Below, one piece after another: positions 2,673 to 30,512 of a stretch of DNA of 64,000 nt; position 1 is the first letter of the stretch; each line of letters opens with the position of its first letter. The translations under genes and the position numbers were made by a program. The DNA is from a virus: positions 32,001-96,000 of the IMG/VR virus record IMGVR_UViG_3300047160_010630. One strand, 5' to 3'. The notes below the pieces were generated by a model. It did no database searches. It worked only from the letters and a program-made list of their open reading frames with translations, and had not been told where the DNA came from.

Positions 2673-3806
2673 TACCGCTTTTTCGGCCTTACGGAATCGC
2701 TTTCTTGGCTCGCACAGTTCGCGGGCCAAGGATTCGAGGACATTTCTGCCCTCGCCAACCTCATTCTCCTCCAGGAAATGATGCTGGGCGAGGAATACAT
2801 GATGCTCGCGGGCTCCAGCACCACGCTGGCCGCCCCGACCGTCATCGGCCTCACCGCCCGCACCGCCGGATCCGGTGAGACCACCGTCGGTGTCAACGCG
2901 AACTTCACCGTTCTCGTGACCGGCACCAACTACTACGGCGAGACCGTGGCGGGTGCGTCCACTACGATCGCCACCACCGCCGGTCAGGTGGTCGATGTCA
3001 CCATCGGCCCCCAGCCCGGTATCCAGCAGTACAACATCTACGTCTCGACCAACGCGGCCCCGACGCGGGCCAACGCGTGGCTGGTGAAGTCGGGCGTGGG
3101 TGGTGTCCGGTACACCGTTCAGGGCACCCTGCCGACCACGGGCACCAACCCGCCGGTCGGTGACAGCGGTACGGGCACCAACACCCGCATGGAAGGCATC
3201 ATCCCGACGCTGACCGGCAAGTCGGCGGCCTCGGGCATCTACCCGGCCAACTGGCAGGGTGGCTACGTCAACCAGTCGGTGGGCACCCACCTGTCCTACA
3301 ACGCCATCTACACCGCCCTCCAGGGCCTGTGGAACGGCGCGCAGGGCGCGGGCAACAACCCGGGCGCGTTCCGTGCGGACCCGGCGGAGATCATCGGTGA
3401 GGGTGGCGACATCATGCGCCTCTCGAACGACGTGATCTCGCAGGGTTCGGCCACCAACTACCGTCTGTTCCTGGAGCAGCCGGACGTGGGCGGCGTCAAG
3501 GTCGGCGCGGCGGTGTCGGAGTTCCAGAACCCGATCACCCGGTCGATCCTGAAGATGGTCGTGCACCCCTGGCTGACCCAGGGTACGGCCATGCTGATGA
3601 CCTACCAGCTCCCGCAGACGTGGACGAACGTTGCCAACGCGTGGGAAATGACGGTCGTTCAGGACTATGTCAGTATCGCGTGGCCCGTCATTGACGCGAC
3701 CTTCCGGTACAGCATCTTCCTGTACGGCGCGCTGGTCGGTCACGCCCCGCAGTATTCTGGCATCTTGCAGGGACTCCAGGTTACGGATGTAACACCCTTT
3801 TCGTAG
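2673..3806 (+). CDS. Major capsid protein, exon 2 (spliced product 608 aa, with an inserted beta-rich domain)
   Basis: Frame open from 2673, 35 codons upstream of the ORF-track start 2778; capsid-like C-terminus VHPWL...YGALVGHAPQYSGILQG. Confidence 0.85.
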   Translation, partial: YRFFGLTESLSWLAQFAGQGFEDISALANLILLQEMMLGEEYMMLAGSSTTLAAPTVIGLTARTAGSGETTVGVNANFTVLVTGTNYYGETVAGASTTIATTAGQVVDVTIGPQPGIQQYNIYVSTNAAPTRANAWLVKSGVGGVRYTVQGTLPTTGTNPPVGDSGTGTNTRMEGIIPTLTGKSAASGIYPANWQGGYVNQSVGTHLSYNAIYTALQGLWNGAQGAGNNPGAFRADPAEIIGEGGDIMRLSNDVISQGSATNYRLFLEQPDVGGVKVGAAVSEFQNPITRSILKMVVHPWLTQGTAMLMTYQLPQTWTNVANAWEMTVVQDYVSIAWPVIDATFRYSIFLYGALVGHAPQYSGILQGLQVTDVTPFS

Positions 3807-3848
3807 ACGAACTGTACACCCTAGAGAAACTGTACTAGACTCTGGGGT

Positions 3849-4949
3849 ATGCAGAACGAAGCGAAGAAGCAGCGTCGGACTACCCCAGCGGACCGGGAGG
3901 AGATGGTCCGGATGTACGCCTCCGGCGCATCCACGACGGTCATCTCCCGGACGCTGGGGTTCTCCGAGCCATCGATCAACTACCAGCTCAGGAAGGCTGG
4001 CGTAACTCTGCGCTCGCCTCGGGAGCAGTCTTCACAGACCCCGCAGCATGTCGAAGATCAGATCATCGACATGTACATGGCCGGAGTGTTGTGGCCGGAT
4101 ATCGTCGCGGAGACCGGCGGTCCCACGTCCGAGAAGACCCTGTACAACATCCTCAAGCGTCGCGGTCTGCCTCCTCAGCGCTATCAGAGCCTGACCCCGG
4201 ACGACCGCGAGGAGCTGGTGTCCCTGTTCACTCAGGGTGACAGCTACGAGGCAATCTCGAAGACTATGGAACTCCCTGAACGGTACGTGCGACATTTCTT
4301 CAGGGAGGACGAGCCGTCGGTCTTCCGGGACATCGACACCCCCGAGAAGGCTTACTGGCTTGGATTCATCACCGCCGACGGAACCATCGTCGGGATTCGA
4401 CCGGGAAACCTTCGCGTCGAAGTCACCCTAAAGGGTTCGGACAGCGAGCATTTGGAGAATCTGAACAGATTCACGAGTAATACTCGTGACCTTAAGCACT
4501 ATGAGGCTGAGACGATCTCCGAAGGTGTTCGTCCCTACGCCAGGTTCGTCGTGTCTAATAGGGCTGTCGTAGCGGATCTGCTACGAGGCGGTGTACACCC
4601 CAACAAAACTGGACGTGAGAAGCCCTGGGATGGTCCTGAGCATCTGATGCGCCACTACTGGCGAGGGGTTATCGACGGTGACGGATCGATCTACGACTCC
4701 CACAGGAGCCCTACCCCGAGCGTAGTGCTTGTCGGGTCCGAGGATCTGTGTTCCGCCTTCTTGCTGTGGGCCAACAAGGTTTGTGGTACGAAAACTAGGG
4801 TCCAGACTGATCTTCGCAGCCCTAATCACTACAGGGCTTCCGTGGGCGGTAACCGGCAGGTTCAAGAACTGGTCCACGAGCTGTACCGCGACTGCGACAC
4901 GTTCCTCCGGCGCAAGATGGGCCGTGCTCAGCGGATCTGTAAATTCTGA
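3849..4949 (+). CDS. Free-standing LAGLIDADG homing endonuclease with N-terminal HTH repeats
   Basis: AYWLGFITADG and HYWRGVIDGDGS motifs; flanks too short for an intron core. Confidence 0.85.
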   Translation: MQNEAKKQRRTTPADREEMVRMYASGASTTVISRTLGFSEPSINYQLRKAGVTLRSPREQSSQTPQHVEDQIIDMYMAGVLWPDIVAETGGPTSEKTLYNILKRRGLPPQRYQSLTPDDREELVSLFTQGDSYEAISKTMELPERYVRHFFREDEPSVFRDIDTPEKAYWLGFITADGTIVGIRPGNLRVEVTLKGSDSEHLENLNRFTSNTRDLKHYEAETISEGVRPYARFVVSNRAVVADLLRGGVHPNKTGREKPWDGPEHLMRHYWRGVIDGDGSIYDSHRSPTPSVVLVGSEDLCSAFLLWANKVCGTKTRVQTDLRSPNHYRASVGGNRQVQELVHELYRDCDTFLRRKMGRAQRICKF

Positions 4950-4968
4950 TGCTCAACTAGGAGAAAAC

Positions 4969-5319
4969 ATGGCCCTCTACAGCGCCACGCTTCAGACCAC
5001 TAACGTCGGCACCGCCGCCATTGCGGTGCTCAATCCGGGTGCTGCTCCGTACGGCAACGGAACGATCGCGACCCTCGTCGGTCCGATCAAGGATCCGATC
5101 ATCACGAACACCGGCCAGGCCACCGTCTTCCTCGGTCAGTCCGGCGTCACCGCCGCTCTCGGCCTCCCGCTCGCTCCGGGTGCCAGCATCACCTACAACG
5201 GCTTCACCACGCCGGTCTCGGTCACGGGCAACACCGGTCAGTCGCTGTTCGCCATCTGCGCCTCCGGAACCAGTTCGACCGTCCTCTGCGGTCCGGCGAC
5301 CGTCAACGCCAACGTCTGA
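4969..5319 (+). CDS. Small beta-rich virion protein, paralog family S copy 1 (putative capsid decoration)
   Basis: SD AGGAG, ATG 4969; motif NTG..TVFLGQSGVT..GLPL.PG shared with the next gene. Confidence 0.65.
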   Translation: MALYSATLQTTNVGTAAIAVLNPGAAPYGNGTIATLVGPIKDPIITNTGQATVFLGQSGVTAALGLPLAPGASITYNGFTTPVSVTGNTGQSLFAICASGTSSTVLCGPATVNANV

Positions 5320-5339
5320 TCACCGAGAAGGAGGCCAGG

Positions 5340-5618
5340 GTGGCGCAGAATGCCCCACTGAACCAGAAGGTCGGGAACGTGGTCGGCACGACCGCCACCC
5401 TGGTCTACCGGCCCGTGGGATCCAACGATTCCGTCACGCTCATCAACGAGGGCCGGGACACCGCCTACATCGGCCAGTCGGCGGTGACAGCTACCACCGG
5501 CTTGCCGCTGGTCCCCGGGGACCGGCTCACGATTCAGCGGGTGCCGTTCCCGATCTACGCGGTGGGATTCGCCAGTTCAGGTGCTCCATTCGTCAGCGTC
5601 GTTGCAGGTGTGAGATAA
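5340..5618 (+). CDS. Small beta-rich virion protein, family S copy 2
   Basis: SD AGGAGG; NEG..TAYIGQSAVT..GLPLVPG...IYA. Confidence 0.65.
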   Translation: MAQNAPLNQKVGNVVGTTATLVYRPVGSNDSVTLINEGRDTAYIGQSAVTATTGLPLVPGDRLTIQRVPFPIYAVGFASSGAPFVSVVAGVR

Positions 5619-5631
5619 GGTGAGGTGACGT

Positions 5632-6309
5632 ATGACTACGCCGAATTCTATCGGACTTCGCTCCGGAGTACTTCAGCCGCCCGGAACGGCCTTCGATCAG
5701 GCCAATCCGGTCTTTGACGGGCCGGTCACCTTCACCAGCAACAGCTCGCTCACCGTCGATGGCAACATGGTCGTCAACGGTACGTACAACGTGCCGTCTC
5801 TCACGCTGAATCAGCCGACCGTCAACGGTGGAACGATCACCAATTCCGCTTTCAATAGCGGGATCACTCTCGCCCCCGGTTCTTCCGTGTCCTACAACGG
5901 GGCCATCTCCACGGGAACGAATGGGGTGGTCGCTGAAGCCTTCGGGGCCGGTGGACCGGCCGCCACTGAAGCGCAGATTGTGTTGGGTGGAGCGTGCCCC
6001 CCGGGGTCGACCATCACCTCGGTAAGTGGTCATGACCTAGGGGGCAGCTTTACCATTCGCGCTACGTCCGCAAGTGGGACGCCGGGTGGCGCCATTTTCA
6101 CGTTCACGTTCTCCAGCCCCATGCCCTCTGTCCCCAAGGCGATCTATCTATCGTCTTTCGATCTCTCCTCAAACACTTCGTACGTAAGCTCGATCTTCGA
6201 TTCCACAAGATCGATCGTTTCCACGACTGGGTACACCCTGGACAGCATCAACGGGGGGTTCTTCGGAAGCGGTCGTCTCTGGTCCTTCTACTATATGGTC
6301 CTTTTTTAG
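5632..6309 (+). CDS. Fibre/adhesin-like protein, paralog family F copy A
   Basis: PPG...FDGPV N-terminus, G.D.GG.F, FTFTFSSP.PS.P, aromatic C-terminus. Confidence 0.65.
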   Translation: MTTPNSIGLRSGVLQPPGTAFDQANPVFDGPVTFTSNSSLTVDGNMVVNGTYNVPSLTLNQPTVNGGTITNSAFNSGITLAPGSSVSYNGAISTGTNGVVAEAFGAGGPAATEAQIVLGGACPPGSTITSVSGHDLGGSFTIRATSASGTPGGAIFTFTFSSPMPSVPKAIYLSSFDLSSNTSYVSSIFDSTRSIVSTTGYTLDSINGGFFGSGRLWSFYYMVLF

Positions 6310-10821: not shown

Positions 10822-11562
10822 GTGACCGTAATTACTCCGGGCTCGCTCACCAAGGTTGTCGATTCGGTAACCGTTCCCGCAGGGGCGACTAATTTCGTTC
10901 TTGCGGAGTTCGAGTTCCCCTCTGCCTCGGCTGACTTTGTGTACCAGGTTCAGATGTCCGAGGCTCCGCACAATGTCGGCAGTCTCCTCCTCACGGCCAG
11001 CGGAAGTGTTGATCGAGTCAACTACTTCGGTCCCGTGAACAACAGCGGCGTGTACCTGTCCAACACCTCGGTAGAGTTGTCGGGTGAGATCAGAGGGCTG
11101 TACCAGAGTTTTCAGTTTCTGATCAGCAACCCGGATACGATCGACCACGTCCTCAACGTCTGGGTCCTGGGGTCCCCGTCCGCGTCCGCCGGACCGGTCG
11201 CCCCCGCCCCGGTCACCCTCTACACGGAGTCGCCGACCGCCCGGACGTCCAGCGGCGCCAGCAACGCCTTCACGTGGCCCAGCGGCGTCTCCCAGGTGTT
11301 CGTCGGGGTCAACGTCACCGCGTTCGCCAGGGCGCCGCACGACGCGCTCACCGTCACGCTCCAGCAGGAGGACGCCAACGGCGTGTTCCAGGACATCGGA
11401 AGCAGCGCCGAGATCAACGAGACCGGGACGACCGTCTTCTCCGTCGGGACGGGGCTGGACAACGGTCAGATGATCGTGGCCGGAGGCACCTACCGGTTCC
11501 TCTGGACCGTCGCAGGAAGTCCGTCCGCCTTGTCGTTCCAGGTCGGTATCACCGGGCGCTGA
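10822..11562 (+). CDS. Two-domain beta-sandwich virion protein
   Basis: Beta-rich composition; position in the head module. Confidence 0.55.
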   Translation: MTVITPGSLTKVVDSVTVPAGATNFVLAEFEFPSASADFVYQVQMSEAPHNVGSLLLTASGSVDRVNYFGPVNNSGVYLSNTSVELSGEIRGLYQSFQFLISNPDTIDHVLNVWVLGSPSASAGPVAPAPVTLYTESPTARTSSGASNAFTWPSGVSQVFVGVNVTAFARAPHDALTVTLQQEDANGVFQDIGSSAEINETGTTVFSVGTGLDNGQMIVAGGTYRFLWTVAGSPSALSFQVGITGR

Positions 11563-11592
11563 AAACGCCCATCAATTAACAAGGAGACGCAT

Positions 11593-12210
11593 ATGACCGT
11601 GCATTCCCGCAGCGATGTTGTTGCGGTGACCATTTCTCCGGCGCACGGAGGCTGCGGACGCGTTCACAGCCGACCCGTCGTCGCGGGAGCACCGGCCCGC
11701 CTCTGGGCCCTGGACTGTGCGGACGGCTGCGAGGACGTGCTGCGGCACGACCCTCTGTGGGCGCCCACGGTCACCACCATTCCCGAGACCCCGGACGAGG
11801 CCGCCACCCGCGAGGACGCCGAGAAGCGCGGCCAGATCGAGCAGGCCAAGAACACGACGGCCGCGCTCCAGGATCTCGCCAACCTCAAGGATCTTCCGCA
11901 GGCGCTGAGCCAGGCGCTGCTGGTCGCGTTCGGCGGCCAGAACCCGCAGGCCGTGGAGGAGCCCCAACTCCTCTGCAAGAACGGGCACGCGAACAAGCCG
12001 ACCGGCCGTTTCTGTGCCGAGTGCGGCACCTCTCTCAAGGAGCCGGTGAGCGCGACCGGCACGGACAATGCTCCGGCCGACGACGCCGCTCCCGACCTTG
12101 AGTCGATGAGCATCAACGAGCTTCGAGAACTTGCCAAGAGTATGGGTGTGAAGACCGCCCGCTCCAAGGACGATCAGATCACCGCTATCCGGGATTCTCT
12201 CGGCAAGTAG
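11593..12210 (+). CDS. Zinc-ribbon protein with C-terminal Rho-N/HeH-like helix pair
   Basis: CKNGH...FCAECG; LESMSINELRELAKSMGV...KDDQITAI. Confidence 0.65.
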   Translation: MTVHSRSDVVAVTISPAHGGCGRVHSRPVVAGAPARLWALDCADGCEDVLRHDPLWAPTVTTIPETPDEAATREDAEKRGQIEQAKNTTAALQDLANLKDLPQALSQALLVAFGGQNPQAVEEPQLLCKNGHANKPTGRFCAECGTSLKEPVSATGTDNAPADDAAPDLESMSINELRELAKSMGVKTARSKDDQITAIRDSLGK

Positions 12211-12235
12211 CCGAGGTCCCTGACGGGAGGTCGGC

Positions 12236-12388
12236 ATGGCACGAGGACGACACACTTGCACGTTGTGTTGTCGACGAAGTCGTCCTCCCGTCAATCATTG
12301 CGCAGACTGCGGGCAACCGTTCTGCGACCGGCACGGAACCTGGTCGGAAGACCGGTGGGTCTGTTTGAGATGTACACGTCGAAAGTGA
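12236..12388 (+). CDS. 50-aa Cys/His zinc-finger protein (below the ORF-track cutoff)
   Basis: GGGAGG SD; MARGRHTCTLCC...CADCGQPFCDRHG...WVCLRCTRRK. Confidence 0.6.
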   Translation: MARGRHTCTLCCRRSRPPVNHCADCGQPFCDRHGTWSEDRWVCLRCTRRK

Positions 12389-12418
12389 TGCACATAAAAA
12401 CTGTGCTATCATAACCTT

Positions 12419-13192
12419 ATGGTTGATCGTGCGTGCTCTTTTCCTGAGTGCAGCAGGCCGCACAAGGGTCGGGGTTACTGTCAGAGCCATCTGAAGATGG
12501 TGCGCAACGGGGTCCCTCTGCGGCCTATAAGGGATCAAGTCGTCAGAAATAGCTATACCTACGATCACGAATTCTTCTCTTCTGTAAACACAGAAGAGAA
12601 GGCTTACTGGCTGGGGTTCATTACCGCTGACGGATGTATTTCGGATACCGGTGATAGCAGGTTTCTCAGCATTAGGCTTCAAGACAGGGACCATGACCAT
12701 CTCGTCAAATTTTGTCGGTCTCTGAAATCTAACCGCCCGGTCCTTCGGTCTCCGGGCGTGTCCTATATGTCTGTGAGCTCTCGCCAAATAATTGATGATC
12801 TCATCTCCCTGGGGGTCACTCCGAGAAAGAGCCTTACGGCCGCTCCGTGGTCATCTGCTTCTCCGGAGTTGGCACGGCACTATATCCGGGGATTGTTCGA
12901 CGGGGACGGGTTCCTTCACAGGGAGAAGCGGGGCGGCTGGGCAGCAGGATTCGGATCGGGCAGACGGCTATTGGTAGAATTCTTCGCCGCGTACGGGATT
13001 ATCGCAACTGGGTCTACTGCAAAAATTCGAACAGCTTTCACCTCGGCGGGCAACGAATTCTTCGACTGGCGCGTGAACGGTGTCAAGGTAACCGGCAATC
13101 TGATCTCCTGGTTGTATAAGGACACGTCGATGTATTTGGATCGAAAAAAGTCCTTGGCAGACGAACTTATTGGTTCCCAGGAGCCCGATTAG
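12419..13192 (+). CDS. Free-standing LAGLIDADG homing endonuclease with N-terminal Zn finger
   Basis: AYWLGFITADG, HYIRGLFDGDG; CSFPEC...GYCQSH; low GC. Confidence 0.85.
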   Translation: MVDRACSFPECSRPHKGRGYCQSHLKMVRNGVPLRPIRDQVVRNSYTYDHEFFSSVNTEEKAYWLGFITADGCISDTGDSRFLSIRLQDRDHDHLVKFCRSLKSNRPVLRSPGVSYMSVSSRQIIDDLISLGVTPRKSLTAAPWSSASPELARHYIRGLFDGDGFLHREKRGGWAAGFGSGRRLLVEFFAAYGIIATGSTAKIRTAFTSAGNEFFDWRVNGVKVTGNLISWLYKDTSMYLDRKKSLADELIGSQEPD

Positions 13193-13219
13193 TACCACCT
13201 TTAGGGGGTGATTCATACA

Positions 13220-14173
13220 ATGCCCTTCGGTAGCGCGTACATTTCGCCGTCCATGCTCACAACCGCCCCTACCGGGTTCCCGTGGTCCATAATTCCTTTC
13301 CCAAAAGCGACCAGCGCCCAGCAGCTGGCGGAGCAGACCAACATTTGTTGGAGAGCCACCTCTACTATCGACGGCTATTGTTTATAGGGCAACCAGGTCC
13401 TGCGCTCCACCATCAACAACGAGAACATTTCCGGCCCGGGGAACTACCGCGTCAATATCCAGAACGGCACGGGCAACGTCCGCATGATCCTGCGCCGCTG
13501 GCCGGTGATGCAGATCGTCGCCGTCCAGGTGGCCAACAACGCGGTGTTCCCCCGGCAGTGGCGCAATGTGCCGACCGGGCTGTTCGACGTCGAGCACCCG
13601 GTCCTCGGTGTGTACACGAACACCGCGCCGACGTCCAGTGCCGACGGCGGCCAGTCGATTCTGATCGCTCCCGGCTACGCGGACTGGAGCAATGGGCGTG
13701 ACGGCTTCCGGTTCCTGGTCTCCTACCTGAACGGCTGGCCGCACACCGGCCTGGTGACGGCTTCCACGGCCGGGACGACGACGCTGTCCGTGGACGACGT
13801 CACCGGCTGGGCCGGGGCCTTCGGGACCATCTACGACGGCGCGCAGACGGAGACGTTCGAGGCCGTCAGCGTGACGGCGACGGCGCCGCTGAGCCTGCCG
13901 AACAACGTGGGGACGGTGCAGACGGGCCCGGGGACCGTCACCTTGAGTTCCCCGCTCCTGTACGCGCACCCGGTCGGCACGATCGTCACCTCCCTGCCGG
14001 GCAGCGTCATCTGGGCGACCATTCTGGCCGCCACTGCCCAGGCGCTGGAATCGGGTGCCACCAGTGTCAGTATCCAGAACATTCCTGGGTCGCTGACCAC
14101 GGGTGGGCACGGTATCGCGGATATCAAGACGGAGTACGAACTGCTGCTCGATCCGTATCGCCGCGTGATATGA
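13220..14173 (+). CDS. Putative head-tail adaptor, interrupted in frame by TTA-TAG-GGC at 13382-13390 (314 aa if the 9 nt are skipped)
   Basis: ATG 13220 after GGGGGTG; 54 codons to RATSTIDGYC, then L * G, then NQVLRS... in the same frame as ORF 13484-14173; adaptor-like C-terminus LLLDPYRRV. Confidence 0.75.
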
Positions 14174-14217
14174 TATGTTACTTGCGTACAGCTCAGGATT
14201 CGTGTACTGTAAGAAAC

Positions 14218-14982
14218 ATGAGTGAACGATTCTGCTCTGTCGCAGACTGCCCCAACCCGAAGCTCAACAACACTCCTGTGGGCCCTCTGTGCTCCAAGCA
14301 CTACCAGCGATACCGGCGCCGGGGGTCCGTAGATTCGGTCGCCAAGCCGCACGCCTACACAAAGAAGATCACGGGAGCCCCCTGCACCGTGGGAGAGTGC
14401 ACGAATCCCGTCGTTGTTCGGGGAATGTGTGGCGCCCACTATCAGCGCAACGTCAAGCATGGTAATCCCAGTACGCTTCTGCTGGACCGTAGCCGCACCC
14501 CCGAAGAACGGTTCTGGTCGTTCGTCGACAAGAATGGCCCTGAAGCGTTCCACTCGCAGACCGGAAAGCCCATCGGAAAGTGTTGGAACTGGTCCGGAGG
14601 GGTCTCCGATGGATATGGGATGTTGTGGCTCAACAAGAAAAACATCCACGCGCACAGATTCTCTTACCGGTTGTATCGGGGAGCTACTCCTGACGGCCTG
14701 GAGCTGGACCACCTGTGCAGGAACCGGTCCTGTTCGAACCCGGCGCACCTTGAGCCAGTCACCCACAAGGAGAATGTGCGTCGGGGGGAATCCCCAAGCG
14801 CCGTGGCGCGCCGTACTAAGCGGTGCAAGATCGGGCACGAGTACGAGCCTTCGTCAGGTCCTGGCCCCCGGGGCTGTCAGACGTGCAGGTACTGGCACAC
14901 TGAGGCGCACAACGCCAAGATCCGCAACCGCCCCTTCGAGCAGCTCGCGCTGTTCCCGGTCAGTTGGGTGAGAACCGAATAG
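14218..14982 (+). CDS. Free-standing HNH homing endonuclease
   Basis: CWNWSG...YG...AHRFSY...LDHLCRNRSCSNPAHLEPVT..EN; two N-terminal Zn fingers; start chosen from promoter position. Confidence 0.85.
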   Translation: MSERFCSVADCPNPKLNNTPVGPLCSKHYQRYRRRGSVDSVAKPHAYTKKITGAPCTVGECTNPVVVRGMCGAHYQRNVKHGNPSTLLLDRSRTPEERFWSFVDKNGPEAFHSQTGKPIGKCWNWSGGVSDGYGMLWLNKKNIHAHRFSYRLYRGATPDGLELDHLCRNRSCSNPAHLEPVTHKENVRRGESPSAVARRTKRCKIGHEYEPSSGPGPRGCQTCRYWHTEAHNAKIRNRPFEQLALFPVSWVRTE

Positions 14983-14989
14983 AAAAATT

Positions 14990-15022
14990 AGAAACCCGGT
15001 CCACTCAGGGCCGGGTTTCTTC
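14990..15022 (+). terminator. Hairpin terminator after the HNH gene
   Basis: agaaacccggtcc-actca-gggccgggtttct. Confidence 0.6.
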
Positions 15023-15043
15023 ATGCACCGAGGGGGTCCACCC

Positions 15044-15211
15044 GTGGCCACGTACAAACCTCCCCGCCACCTCAGGGGCGGTATACACGCCCGTACGCTC
15101 ACGGCGCGCCAGCAGCACCGCCGCTCCGGGGCGAAGAAGACCCTCACCCGGCGGATCAACGCGAAGCTGTTCCGGGGACGCACGGTCAACGCGCCCCGGC
15201 ACCGGTGGTAA
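15044..15211 (+). CDS. Small Arg-rich basic protein
   Basis: GAGGGGG SD, GTG start; fills the gap in the operon. Confidence 0.45.
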   Translation: MATYKPPRHLRGGIHARTLTARQQHRRSGAKKTLTRRINAKLFRGRTVNAPRHRW

Positions 15212-15221
15212 CAGAGAGTAG

Positions 15222-15722
15222 GTGAGCCTGTTGCCGCTGAATTCTGTGCAGCAGTACGTAGCCAATCAGATCAACGGGATCCAGGTCCCGACCATTCCGC
15301 AGCCGATCGAGGCGTTCATCACGCCACCTGCCATGGAGGCCCCCAACGGCCCCAAGGCGTACATCTGGGGCGCCCGCAACCGGGGCCGACGGCAGACGAT
15401 GCCGCGCGGTATCGCCCCGGCCGCCGGATTCAAGCGGCTCGACTGGACCGTGGACATCTACCTGATCTACGAGACCCTGGCGGACGATCCGATGATCGAC
15501 CAGGACTTCCCGCTCATCATCGACGCCGTCCTCACCAAGCTGTGGACGACGACGATGCCGGTGTTCATCACCGACCCGGTCACGGAGCAGGTGTCCCAGA
15601 TCCAGTCGGTCGGCGAGGAGTGGAACCTGGAGTACCCGCCGGAGCGCACCCCCTCTACTTTGCGTACGGTCTGGTACTCGTCACGGATCGCCATGGACAT
15701 TCTGGAGATTGTGCAGGCATGA
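15222..15722 (+). CDS. Putative tail terminator / tail completion protein
   Basis: Size and position upstream of the tail tube. Confidence 0.5.
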   Translation: MSLLPLNSVQQYVANQINGIQVPTIPQPIEAFITPPAMEAPNGPKAYIWGARNRGRRQTMPRGIAPAAGFKRLDWTVDIYLIYETLADDPMIDQDFPLIIDAVLTKLWTTTMPVFITDPVTEQVSQIQSVGEEWNLEYPPERTPSTLRTVWYSSRIAMDILEIVQA

Positions 15723-29604: not shown

Positions 29605-29644
29605 TTCCTTGTTCCTTTCTGCGCTGGGTAGAATCTCCACCCTG

Positions 29645-29727
29645 TGTGCTCGGAGGGAGTCGAACCCTCACGTCTCTTGGACGCCGGTACTTGAAGCCGG
29701 TGCGTCTGCCTGTTTCGCCACGAGCAC
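29645..29727 (-). tRNA. tRNA-Leu(CAA)
   Basis: Acceptor gtgctcg/cgagcac, Leu-type D-loop, long variable arm, TTCGA T-loop; C.A mismatch closing the anticodon stem. Confidence 0.85.
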
Positions 29728-29731
29728 TCAG

Positions 29732-29812
29732 CAGAGGGTAGAGGTAACGCTCCCCGAGCCTTTCAGCTCCCCAGATTTTCAAGACCTGTTTGCACCTTGT
29801 GCGGTACCCTCT
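29732..29812 (-). tRNA. Atypical tRNA-Ser(UGA)
   Basis: Acceptor agagggt/accctct, G73, anticodon arm caggt-cttgaaa-atctg, long variable arm; non-canonical T-loop AGCGTTA and minimal D-arm. Confidence 0.65.
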
Positions 29813-30156
29813 ATATGTGTGACTGTTTTACCGTGATGGTCACTTGAATTGAGTATTACTACACGATTTTCTGGAACTATATAAACTGCCAGAAGATCTG
29901 ATTTATTTCCGTCGAACTTTATTACTCTTGTCTCATTTGTATTGTGTCGTACTGATTTAAGCTGTACGGCATAGCTCTTTTTGGATCCTTTGTAGGAGGT
30001 GCTTTTAACCTCTACTCTGGAAAGGATTCCTTCTTTAACTACTACCATGTCAAAGTTCGCATTACCAAAAACTGGTAGATAAACATCGTAACCTTGACGC
30101 ACGAATTCATGTGCTACGGCTGCTTCTCCGAGTCTACCCTTCTTTACTGTGTTCAC
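29779..30156 (-). CDS. PD-(D/E)XK homing endonuclease (I-Ssp6803I-like), free-standing in the tRNA cluster
   Basis: KGRLGEAAV..EF...GY.V.LP....FDMV......RVEVKS; AT-rich; start GTG 30156 or ATG 30165. Confidence 0.8.
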   Translation of the reverse strand: MNTVKKGRLGEAAVAHEFVRQGYDVYLPVFGNANFDMVVVKEGILSRVEVKSTSYKGSKKSYAVQLKSVRHNTNETRVIKFDGNKSDLLAVYIVPENRVVILNSSDHHGKTVTHIEGTAQGANRS

Positions 30157-30177
30157 GCGTCTCATAATACAATAAAG

Positions 30178-30248
30178 AACGGACGACGGGAATCGAACCC
30201 GCACCTCCAGCGTGGAAGGCTGGGGCACTGCCGTTATGCAACGTCCGC
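30178..30248 (-). tRNA. tRNA-Gly(UCC)
   Basis: Cloverleaf, loop cttccac, U73. Confidence 0.88.
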
Positions 30249-30249
30249 G

Positions 30250-30332
30250 TGGAAGTGGAGGGAATTGAACCCCCGAGCCCGAAGGATCCGGTTTACAGCC
30301 GGACGCAACCAGCCAACAGTTGCCTCACTTCC
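30250..30332 (-). tRNA. tRNA-Tyr(GUA)
   Basis: tccgg-ctgtaaa-ccgga, variable arm, A73. Confidence 0.88.
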
Positions 30333-30337
30333 AACAG

Positions 30338-30411
30338 GGTGACCTACGGGAATCGAACCCGCAACCTTCGGTGCCACAGACCGACGCTCTGCCAATTGAG
30401 CTAAGGCCACC
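30338..30411 (-). tRNA. tRNA-His(GUG) with genomically encoded G-1
   Basis: tcggt-ctgtggc-accga; C73; G directly 5' of position 1. Confidence 0.9.
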
Positions 30412-30438
30412 ATTGCCGGTGTACTGCATGAATCGTAG

Positions 30439-30512
30439 TGGCGGGGACAGGATTTGAACCTGCGACCTACGGGTTATGAGCCCGCCGAGCTACCGAGCTG
30501 CTCCACCCCGCT
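30439..30512 (-). tRNA. Initiator tRNA-fMet(CAU)
   Basis: 1:72 mismatch (A/C); GGG/CCC in anticodon stem; loop ctcataa. Confidence 0.92.

Follow-up and report, generated by a model that had tools for sequence, protein, structure and literature searches.

We analyzed a 64-kb window (the whole stretch of DNA considered here) of the 108-kb IMG/VR record IMGVR_UViG_3300047160_010630, which belongs to a soil phage (65% GC). A gene for a LAGLIDADG endonuclease lies there directly upstream of a virion gene that we call the head-tail adaptor gene, and the adaptor gene is interrupted by a gap of 9 nucleotides (nt) that opens with a very rare TTA codon. Our preferred reading, held with modest confidence, is that the two form a two-part cassette moving as one unit, by analogy with the mobA/gene 60 pair of phage T4. 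Part one would be the nuclease gene, inserted between a Zn-ribbon gene and the adaptor gene, and part two the 9-nt gap, which ribosomes would hop over.

The 257-amino acid (aa) product of the first gene belongs to the LAGLIDADG family. It passes the Pfam cut-off for PF14528 (LAGLIDADG_3; 28.2 bits versus 22.5) and matches phrog_4645 over residues 42-251 with an E value of 8.6e-42. Two LAGLIDADG motifs are present, YWLGFITADG (with Asp-71) and RGLFDGDG (with Asp-161 and Asp-163). Their acidic positions are invariant in 33 family members, and the window nuclease keeps all residues that are invariant across this set. An AlphaFold2 model (predicted local distance difference test score, 91.8) contains the α-β-β-α-β-β-α core twice, and Foldseek matched it to I-Tsp061I (2dch; E 5e-9), then to PI-PfuI, I-OnuI, and I-AniI, with 142 hits at E ≤ 1e-3. 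The enzyme is monomeric in type and probably active. Its gene is a separate open reading frame (ORF) between two genes and lies in neither an intron nor an intein. At the same position upstream of the adaptor gene, the nuclease is missing in ∼80 relatives, in which the Zn-ribbon gene is followed after 25-45 nt by the adaptor gene, and it is present in six others. By every criterion that can be tested on sequence, the ORF at 12419-13192 is a free-standing homing endonuclease gene.

Residues 4-32 of the nuclease form a Cys/His knuckle, of which a repeated version is found at the N terminus of the HNH protein encoded downstream of the adaptor gene. Knuckle modules of this kind (Cys..Cys..Cys..His; the N terminus of phrog_5351) are common to window positions 12419-12520 and 14170-14480, and relatives of the LAGLIDADG protein bear one to four repeats. 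The knuckle looks like a common DNA-binding module that is exchanged between nuclease families. A second LAGLIDADG paralog of 366 aa is encoded in the head module of the window (3849-4949). It shares 34% identity with the first and has an N terminus of the helix-turn-helix type instead of knuckles; no TTA was found in the sequence next to it (4900-5700). The window nuclease itself is also encoded on two other contigs, P0001 and P0122.

The nuclease gene ends 27 nt before the adaptor start (stop 13190-13192, ATG 13220), as had been stated in an earlier note on this DNA, which proposed that the insert and the nuclease spread together. The adaptor frame is open from 13220 to 14173 except for one in-frame TAG at 13385-13387. 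This stop belongs to the insert TTA TAG GGC, which begins ∼190 nt downstream of the nuclease gene and splits the conserved motif DGYC/NQVLR between TGT and AAC. When we aligned the adaptor with 119 cluster representatives (55-82% identity), the three columns holding Leu-stop-Gly were filled only in the window (0/119), DGYC and NQVLR being contiguous in all 119 relatives; about 30 relatives' loci (∼22 distinct) also lack the 9 nt. The closest adaptor relative, P0126, is 82% identical and is encoded on a 99-kb contig. We found no second copy of the 9-mer in the 108-kb record, and exact-flank pattern searches of IMG/VR, with or without the 9 nt, returned nothing. A degenerate search for other gaps at the DGYC/NQ site gave a single match (L197), which was set aside as an unrelated chance hit.

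The name adaptor is a reasonable one because the structure model of a close homolog can be matched along its entire length to phage neck/adaptor proteins (VIA Z scores of 9.7 (8q01_b), 9.5 (6tba_2A), and 9.2; HK97 gp6, Z 7.8) and because the BFVD entries that the model matches carry the names “Gp6 domain” and “head to tail adaptor.” Pfam and PHROGs gave no assignment, and a Foldseek search of the model against the PDB gave EF-Tu barrel hits only, which were discarded as spurious. Gene calling truncated the adaptor to a 229-aa ORF, a product known from this contig only. Such a product could also result if the insert were an assembly or sequencing artefact of a metagenome contig, an explanation that we find scarcely credible; the insert obeys the grammar of 11 independent gaps from other samples (described below), and a non-repetitive 9-nt insertion is atypical of short-read assembly error.

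The insert coincides with a break in codon composition. GC content at third codon positions (GC3) was 0.69 before the insert (38/55 codons) and 0.96 in the next 54 codons (52/54; Fisher p = 2e-4), and the difference from the next 209 codons was stronger still (p = 1e-6). Codons ending in A or T number 17 of 55 before the insert versus 2 of 54 after it. The same comparison in 64 gap-free relatives gave −0.014 ± 0.075, with a minimum of −0.17, versus about −0.27 in the window. Because the window value falls outside these controls, the drop is not a general 5′-end effect, and the earlier note's description of A/T-ending codons that give way to normal GC3 after the insert holds. The low-GC3 tract comprises the last ∼40 codons of the upstream gene (from ∼12090), the Zn-ribbon gene (0.51), the nuclease gene (0.61), and the first part of the adaptor gene, compared with ∼0.88 in the genes neighbouring the Zn-ribbon and nuclease genes, and it ends at the gap. 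At the other end of the adaptor gene, beside the HNH gene, is a second low stretch that the earlier note did not mention: the last 52 codons (14015-14170) have a GC3 of 0.71 versus 0.95 in mid-gene (p = 7e-6). Codon usage thus gives the adaptor the look of a gene whose core is native and whose two ends, both of them beside an endonuclease gene, are foreign.

To follow the two parts across relatives, we searched IMG/VR with the nuclease-family alignment, which gave 80 loci; a single-protein search with the nuclease gave no match. In all seven best matches to the window nuclease (L036-L041 and L053; E 5e-52 to 3e-33), an adaptor gene lay downstream, directly in six and 1.9 kb away in one; the next-ranked match, L042, had none. 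The adaptor was interrupted within its first 30 codons in five of the six loci with a directly downstream adaptor gene, and in four of them (L039, L040, L041, and L053) the gap was placed immediately 3′ of the invariant APT codons. When IMG/VR was searched again, this time with aligned adaptors, 86 unique adaptor loci came up. Among them, five further interrupted lineages appeared, at the same or neighbouring sites and with no nuclease nearby. Another eight adaptors, from bacterial genomes and metagenome-assembled genomes (MAGs), were intact. Gap lengths are 7-26 nt beside the nuclease and 5-26 nt when the gap-only lineages are included. The gaps fall in the best-conserved DNA of the adaptor 5′ region (Ala-16, Pro-17, Gly-19, Ile-25, and Pro-26 are invariant, Asp-51 and Asn-55 nearly so), and conserved motifs are where homing endonuclease targets and protective inserts are expected to lie.

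Gaps and nucleases occur together. Adaptors with a gap in their first 55 codons were found in 6 of 7 loci with a LAGLIDADG gene directly upstream versus 5 of 79 without one (Fisher p = 6.5e-6, with counts inflated by kinship). On the adaptor tree, the gap state changed eight times and the nuclease state six times; four to five of six independent contrasts were concordant and none was discordant. Each cassette-bearing genome has close sisters that lack both parts (L131 versus L124-L126, and L040 versus L032). These comparisons suggest that this nuclease lineage and TTA-led gaps were gained together several times, at different conserved motifs of one virion gene. They amount to the co-occurrence check that the earlier note had called for, and the predicted association was borne out in the main; the opposite outcome that it had named, an insert occurring independently of the nuclease, was encountered in part, in the form of five gap-only lineages and one nuclease without a gap. 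Two related analyses were uninformative. Fine mapping of the conversion tract between L131 and its nearest sisters could not reveal its ends at ∼70-75% nucleotide identity, and low GC3 upstream of the gap in the APT-site loci was indistinguishable from the usual 5′-end effect (controls, −0.08 ± 0.11).

A common grammar unites the gaps. All 12, the one in the window included, open with a TTA that is in frame with the preceding codons, and TTA is the rarest codon of the phage genome (∼5 of 28,515 codons by rough gene calls). In 11 of the 12, the final triplet of the gap has the same base at position 2 as the codon just before the gap, and in five the landing codon is fully synonymous with the take-off codon (ACT/ACC, GGT/GGT, AGT/AGC, and ACA/ACC twice). 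At least seven gaps shift the frame, and the flanking sequence is conserved on both sides. Because of these shifts, neither readthrough nor an inserted peptide can explain the frame-shifting gaps.

For the window gap alone, readthrough would mean that TTA is read as leucine and TAG misread at a low level, yielding an adaptor lengthened by three residues where helix 1 ends. The length of the insert is a multiple of three, in the model of the close homolog a long helix reaches its C-terminal end at this site and gives way to a loop, and the adaptor is presumably needed in few copies per virion, all of which would suit this explanation. We consider it very improbable, given that the record holds no suppressor tRNA, that TAG is the normal stop of neighbouring genes, that the insert separates the nearly invariant residues Asp-51, Asn-55, and Gln-56, and that most of the sister gaps are frame-shifting and hence need another solution. 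A suppressor tRNA or an altered genetic code was likewise rejected, as the 108-kb record contains no tRNA with a CUA anticodon and TAG terminates neighbouring genes. Translational restart after the stop was judged unlikely, the only candidates being a CTG five codons on and the ATG at 13484. A genome-wide scan for in-frame stops by GC3 was too noisy to use at 65% GC.

The grammar also bears on whether the 9 nt could be a scar, left by recombination or repair where a conversion tract ends, with a dead adaptor in a genome that is defective or kept by complementation. A stop codon inside an apparently single-copy virion gene, an insert exactly at the composition junction, an imperfect landing codon, and the lack of a stimulatory structure would all be in keeping with a scar. 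Nevertheless, 11 other gaps, all in relatives, share the TTA-first grammar at conserved sites, one of them being identical in four metagenomes (L011, L012, L013, and L027), the codons flanking the insert remain conserved on both sides, and an in-frame TTA start would arise by chance in only about 1 of 64 cases. We regard a scar as quite improbable.

The same rule is found in a published system. UUA-led gaps are known from the large terminase genes of Streptomyces phage phiHau3 and two prophages (StrepC.1 and S. catenulae; Smith et al. 2013, cited in Antonov et al. 2023, PMC10732093). The two 10-nt gaps of phiHau3 (NC_018836; L196 2610-2640 and 2915-2945) read GGC-TTACTCCGGT-AAG and TCT-TTAACGGTCC-ACG, where hyphens set off the gap from the codons on either side, and in both the landing codon is fully synonymous with the take-off codon, as the rule of the adaptor gaps would have it. 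Antonov et al. 2023 (PMC10732093) reported a full-length product in Streptomyces and, for a version with UAA in place of UUA in E. coli, a junction peptide as proof of bypass. By its grammar, the gap in the window is a putative member of this known UUA-bypass kind of recoding. The suggestion in the earlier note that the insert is tolerated by translation instead of splicing fits this assignment.

Membership in this group raises the question of regulation. The gap could be a bypass switch that senses the state of the host tRNA-Leu(UAA) (bldA-type), as proposed for the phiHau3 terminase, next to which the nuclease would be an unrelated neighbour co-transferred by proximity. Such a switch would account for the gaps in five lineages with no nuclease nearby and for phiHau3, where no free-standing endonuclease is annotated flanking the gapped terminase gene; a TTA followed by a stop (TAG in the window, TGA in L053) suits an on/off design, and the hosts of the relatives appear to be sporulating actinomycetes. 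It leaves unexplained the ∼13-fold excess of gaps beside LAGLIDADG genes and their joint gain in four to five independent lineages, the placement of the gaps in the most conserved motifs within ∼200 nt of the nuclease gene, and the foreign-looking tract that ends exactly at the gap. We consider the switch unlikely as the explanation of the locus, although switch and nuclease-immunity roles could coexist.

Under the cassette reading, the two parts would work in four steps. When relatives co-infect a cell, the nuclease would cut those of their adaptor alleles that lack the gap, at or close to a conserved motif within the first 55 codons. Repair would then copy the nuclease gene, its flanks, and the gap from the donor, leaving behind foreign, low-GC3 sequence up to the gap. 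By breaking the recognition sequence, the gap would render the carrier immune. Finally, a ribosome whose peptidyl-tRNA(Cys) is paired with TGT would stall once the very rare TTA occupies its A site, slide across the 9 nt, pair anew with GGC, and continue translation from AAC. We infer the cleavage site, the immunity, and the hopping with its efficiency from the comparisons above. A different hop, from the GGC at 13373 to the GGC at 13388, was rejected, since it would remove the conserved Tyr-Cys and would have no slow codon in the A site.

Several points weigh against this reading. The gap site of the window, after DGYC, recurs in no other nuclease-bearing locus; only the second gap of L129 lies nearby, and L129 has no nuclease. 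The five gap lineages without a nuclease, and the nuclease of L036 without a gap, break the pairing. The median sign-test p for the independent contrasts is 0.06, a floor because there are so few contrast pairs. The window take-off and landing codons, TGT and GGC, match at positions 2 and 3 only, and two of three positions match in five other gaps as well. RNA structure around the gap was not significant against shuffled sequences (z = +1.1), and the gap site has only a weak Shine-Dalgarno (SD)-like AGGG. The contig is a metagenome assembly.

The gap-only lineages would be expected if nucleases decay after fixation, by analogy with the T4 MobA element, and they could also represent resistance alleles. 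Individual loci add some detail. In L036 (3790-3960), the sole nuclease-bearing locus without a gap, D-A-A-T-G stands where relatives have N-A-P-T-G, a substitution that could be target-site immunity without a gap. The LAGLIDADG protein of L040 (2746-3834) has Asn for the Asp of the first motif (ITANG), and the L037 enzyme (3109-3831) has lost the knuckle N terminus, with stop codons upstream; both changes are possible signs of endonuclease decay after fixation. L129 (2378-2500; locus GC 0.55) carries gaps of 7 and 8 nt within the first 55 adaptor codons; at each, the landing codon is a perfect match to the take-off codon, and the nearest 2.5 kb contain no endonuclease gene. In L041 and L053, take-off and landing codons fall in one Thr family box (ACA, ACC), and L041 also has a strong internal GGAGG.

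A broader proposal can be made, which we offer tentatively and hold to be rather doubtful. TTA-led micro-gaps might be a general minimal self-immunity device of homing endonucleases of any family in high-GC actinophages, with a few bases wrecking the nuclease target in an essential gene and ribosomes hopping since TTA is nearly undecodable. Gaps of the phiHau3 type and gap-only alleles would then be invasion footprints, or resistance alleles selected in phages free of the nuclease, and not mainly switches.

The features of the locus and the gaps of its relatives are collected in Table 1. The late genes follow the order Rho_N-domain protein, Zn-ribbon protein, nuclease ORF, adaptor, HNH protein, and more virion genes. 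Homologs of the Zn-ribbon gene immediately precede the adaptor gene in relatives (25-45 nt upstream in L004-L008, L016, and others). The HNH gene product matches Pfam PF13392 (E 1.9e-11) and phrog_826 (E 3.9e-39) and separates the adaptor gene from the next virion gene, unlike in L005, L008, L014, and L015, where the adaptor gene abuts the next gene directly. L040 likewise has an HNH gene (39% identity) immediately 3′ of its adaptor gene. No TTA gap was seen on the HNH side of the window adaptor.

Table 1. Features of the window locus (window coordinates) and adaptor gaps in related loci. Gaps are written as preceding codon, gap, and following codon, separated by hyphens.
Feature	Position or length	Strand	Remarks
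Small Zn-ribbon gene, 50 aa	12236-12388	+	Left flank of low-GC3 tract
Free-standing LAGLIDADG homing endonuclease gene, 257 aa	12419-13192	+	TAG stop at 13190-13192
Spacer, 27 nt, with adaptor ribosome-binding site	13193-13219	+	SD-like TAGGGGGTG, read from sequence
Adaptor part 1, 54 codons, low GC3	13220-13381	+	Translation and alignment; last codon TGT (13379-13381) is the proposed take-off
9-nt coding gap, TTA TAG GGC	13382-13390	+	Rare TTA at the A-site position, then stop, then proposed landing codon GGC
Adaptor part 2, 260 codons and stop	13391-14173	+	Resumes at AAC (Asn of NQVLR)
Second free-standing endonuclease gene, HNH_3, 270 aa	14170-14982	+	Between adaptor and next virion gene
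Low-GC3 tract of ∼1.3 kb, putative co-conversion tract	12090-13390	none	Composition profile, sliding GC3, 64-relative control
L053 gap, ACA-TTATGAGAGACC-GGC	12 nt		After APT; stop TGA follows TTA
L041 gap, starts TTAGCGGAGG, ends AAACC	26 nt		After APT
L040 gap, ACA-TTATCGAAATT-GGA	11 nt		After APT
L039 gap, ACT-TTAAGCC-GGG	7 nt		After APT
L037 gap, ATC-TTAGGTC-CCA	7 nt		After WSII
L027 (= L011-L013) gap, ACT-TTATGTGAACC-GGC			No nuclease; identical in four metagenomes
L028 gap, ACA-TTAGGTCGCA-GGC			No nuclease
L029 gap, GGT-TTAGC-ATC			No nuclease
L195 gap, ATT-TTAGCTC-CCT			No nuclease
L129 first gap, GGT-TTATGGT-ATT			No nuclease
L129 second gap, AGT-TTACAAGC-TAT			Compensates L129 first gap

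No named phage is close to this one, because a megablast search of 11500-15300 against named phages gave zero matches and a tblastn search with the adaptor found only a distant Thermoanaerobacterium phage. Adaptor relatives do occur in a Catenulispora MAG, in a prophage-like region of Actinoallomurus vinaceus JCM 17939, and in Streptosporangiaceae MAGs (L198-L206), which suggests that phages of this group infect sporulating actinomycetes. Eight tRNAs are encoded in the phage genome (Leu-CAA, Gly, Tyr, His, Met, Ala, and two Thr; window 29644-30512, genome 11115-15618); tRNA-Leu(UAA) and a suppressor tRNA with a CUA anticodon are both absent from the 108-kb record.

Natural programmed ribosome hopping is known in few systems, namely T4 gene 60 and its homologs, the byps of yeast mitochondria, and three actinophage terminase genes, and why a phage keeps so costly a device is still debated. 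UUA-led bypass gaps and the mobA/gene 60 cassette had already been published separately; in our full-text literature search, no publication connecting UUA gaps with homing endonucleases came up. The joint gain suggested here would tie the actinophage UUA gaps to the idea, drawn from mobA and gene 60, that bypass confers immunity to a homing endonuclease. The adaptor gaps are also a ready-made set of small natural variants on which the requirements of ribosome hopping could be tested. In practical terms, gene callers split or truncate genes of this kind, as they did the window adaptor.

Among known systems, the phiHau3 gaps have the same build as those described here: a last conserved codon, an in-frame TTA, a few nucleotides, a landing codon resembling the take-off codon, and a resume codon. 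Both occur in a high-GC actinophage in which TTA is very rare, with the insert in a highly conserved motif and a stop soon after the TTA. The window gap differs in lying in an adaptor gene, not a terminase gene, in being in frame, and in its imperfect landing codon. The function proposed for the phiHau3 gaps is that of a lysis/lysogeny sensor, with no proposed link to an endonuclease, and the word “homing” is absent from that paper (PMC10732093). The “Byp” elements of Magnusiomyces capitatus mitochondria, 27-55 nt in length, are hopped as well (Lang et al. 2014, cited in PMC10732093). Like the adaptor gaps, they are short non-coding inserts in essential genes, many of them in that genome; unlike these, they are mitochondrial and longer, have no associated endonuclease, and do not follow a TTA rule.

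The behaviour of the nuclease calls for other comparisons. In collaborative homing, the free-standing endonuclease F-CphI reportedly targets the intron insertion site of cyanophage psbA. There, as proposed here, the free-standing nuclease travels with a protective insert that is separate from it and lies in a neighbouring gene, and the recognition site is interrupted; the insert there is a self-splicing group I intron, whereas the 9 nt of the window are far below ribozyme size and would be handled only in translation. The collaborative homing invoked in the earlier note is, in its intron-based form, a less close precedent than the mobA/gene 60 cassette. Intronless homing is said to be carried out by the free-standing Seg and Mob endonucleases of T4, for example by SegF at gene 56. 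The window locus resembles SegF/gene 56 in having an intergenic nuclease gene and, on our reading, a conserved neighbour cut a few hundred nucleotides away, co-converted flanking markers, and a carrier made immune by a sequence difference. Immunity in that system comes from substitutions; here it would come from an insertion that disrupts the reading frame.

The T4 MobA element offers a closer parallel. It combines a free-standing HNH homing endonuclease with the 50-nt bypass of gene 60 (Manning & Atkins, bioRxiv 10.1101/2022.08.31.505936, citing Bonocora et al. 2011), and in the account given there the bypass blocks self-cleavage, persists after loss of the endonuclease, and was inserted repeatedly and independently. 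There is no sequence homology between the two, so that the window locus would work like the element without being a member of its family. Its nuclease is of the LAGLIDADG and not the HNH family, its target is a head-tail adaptor and not a topoisomerase gene, and its gap is 9 nt long (5-26 nt in relatives) instead of 50 nt. No take-off stem-loop or nascent-peptide signal was detected here, the target gene is not broken up into a pair of ORFs bearing extra tails, and the gap site varies by lineage. What the two share is a free-standing endonuclease gene beside a conserved gene with a hopped (here, putatively) non-coding insert, and a slow-to-decode codon in the A site at take-off; matched take-off and landing codons recur in full in only some of the adaptor gaps, the window pair agreeing at two of three positions. 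In both, the bypass occurs with the endonuclease and in lineages without it, insertions appear to have arisen repeatedly and independently, and the endonuclease gene and the gap are, to judge from the joint distribution among adaptor loci, inherited together.

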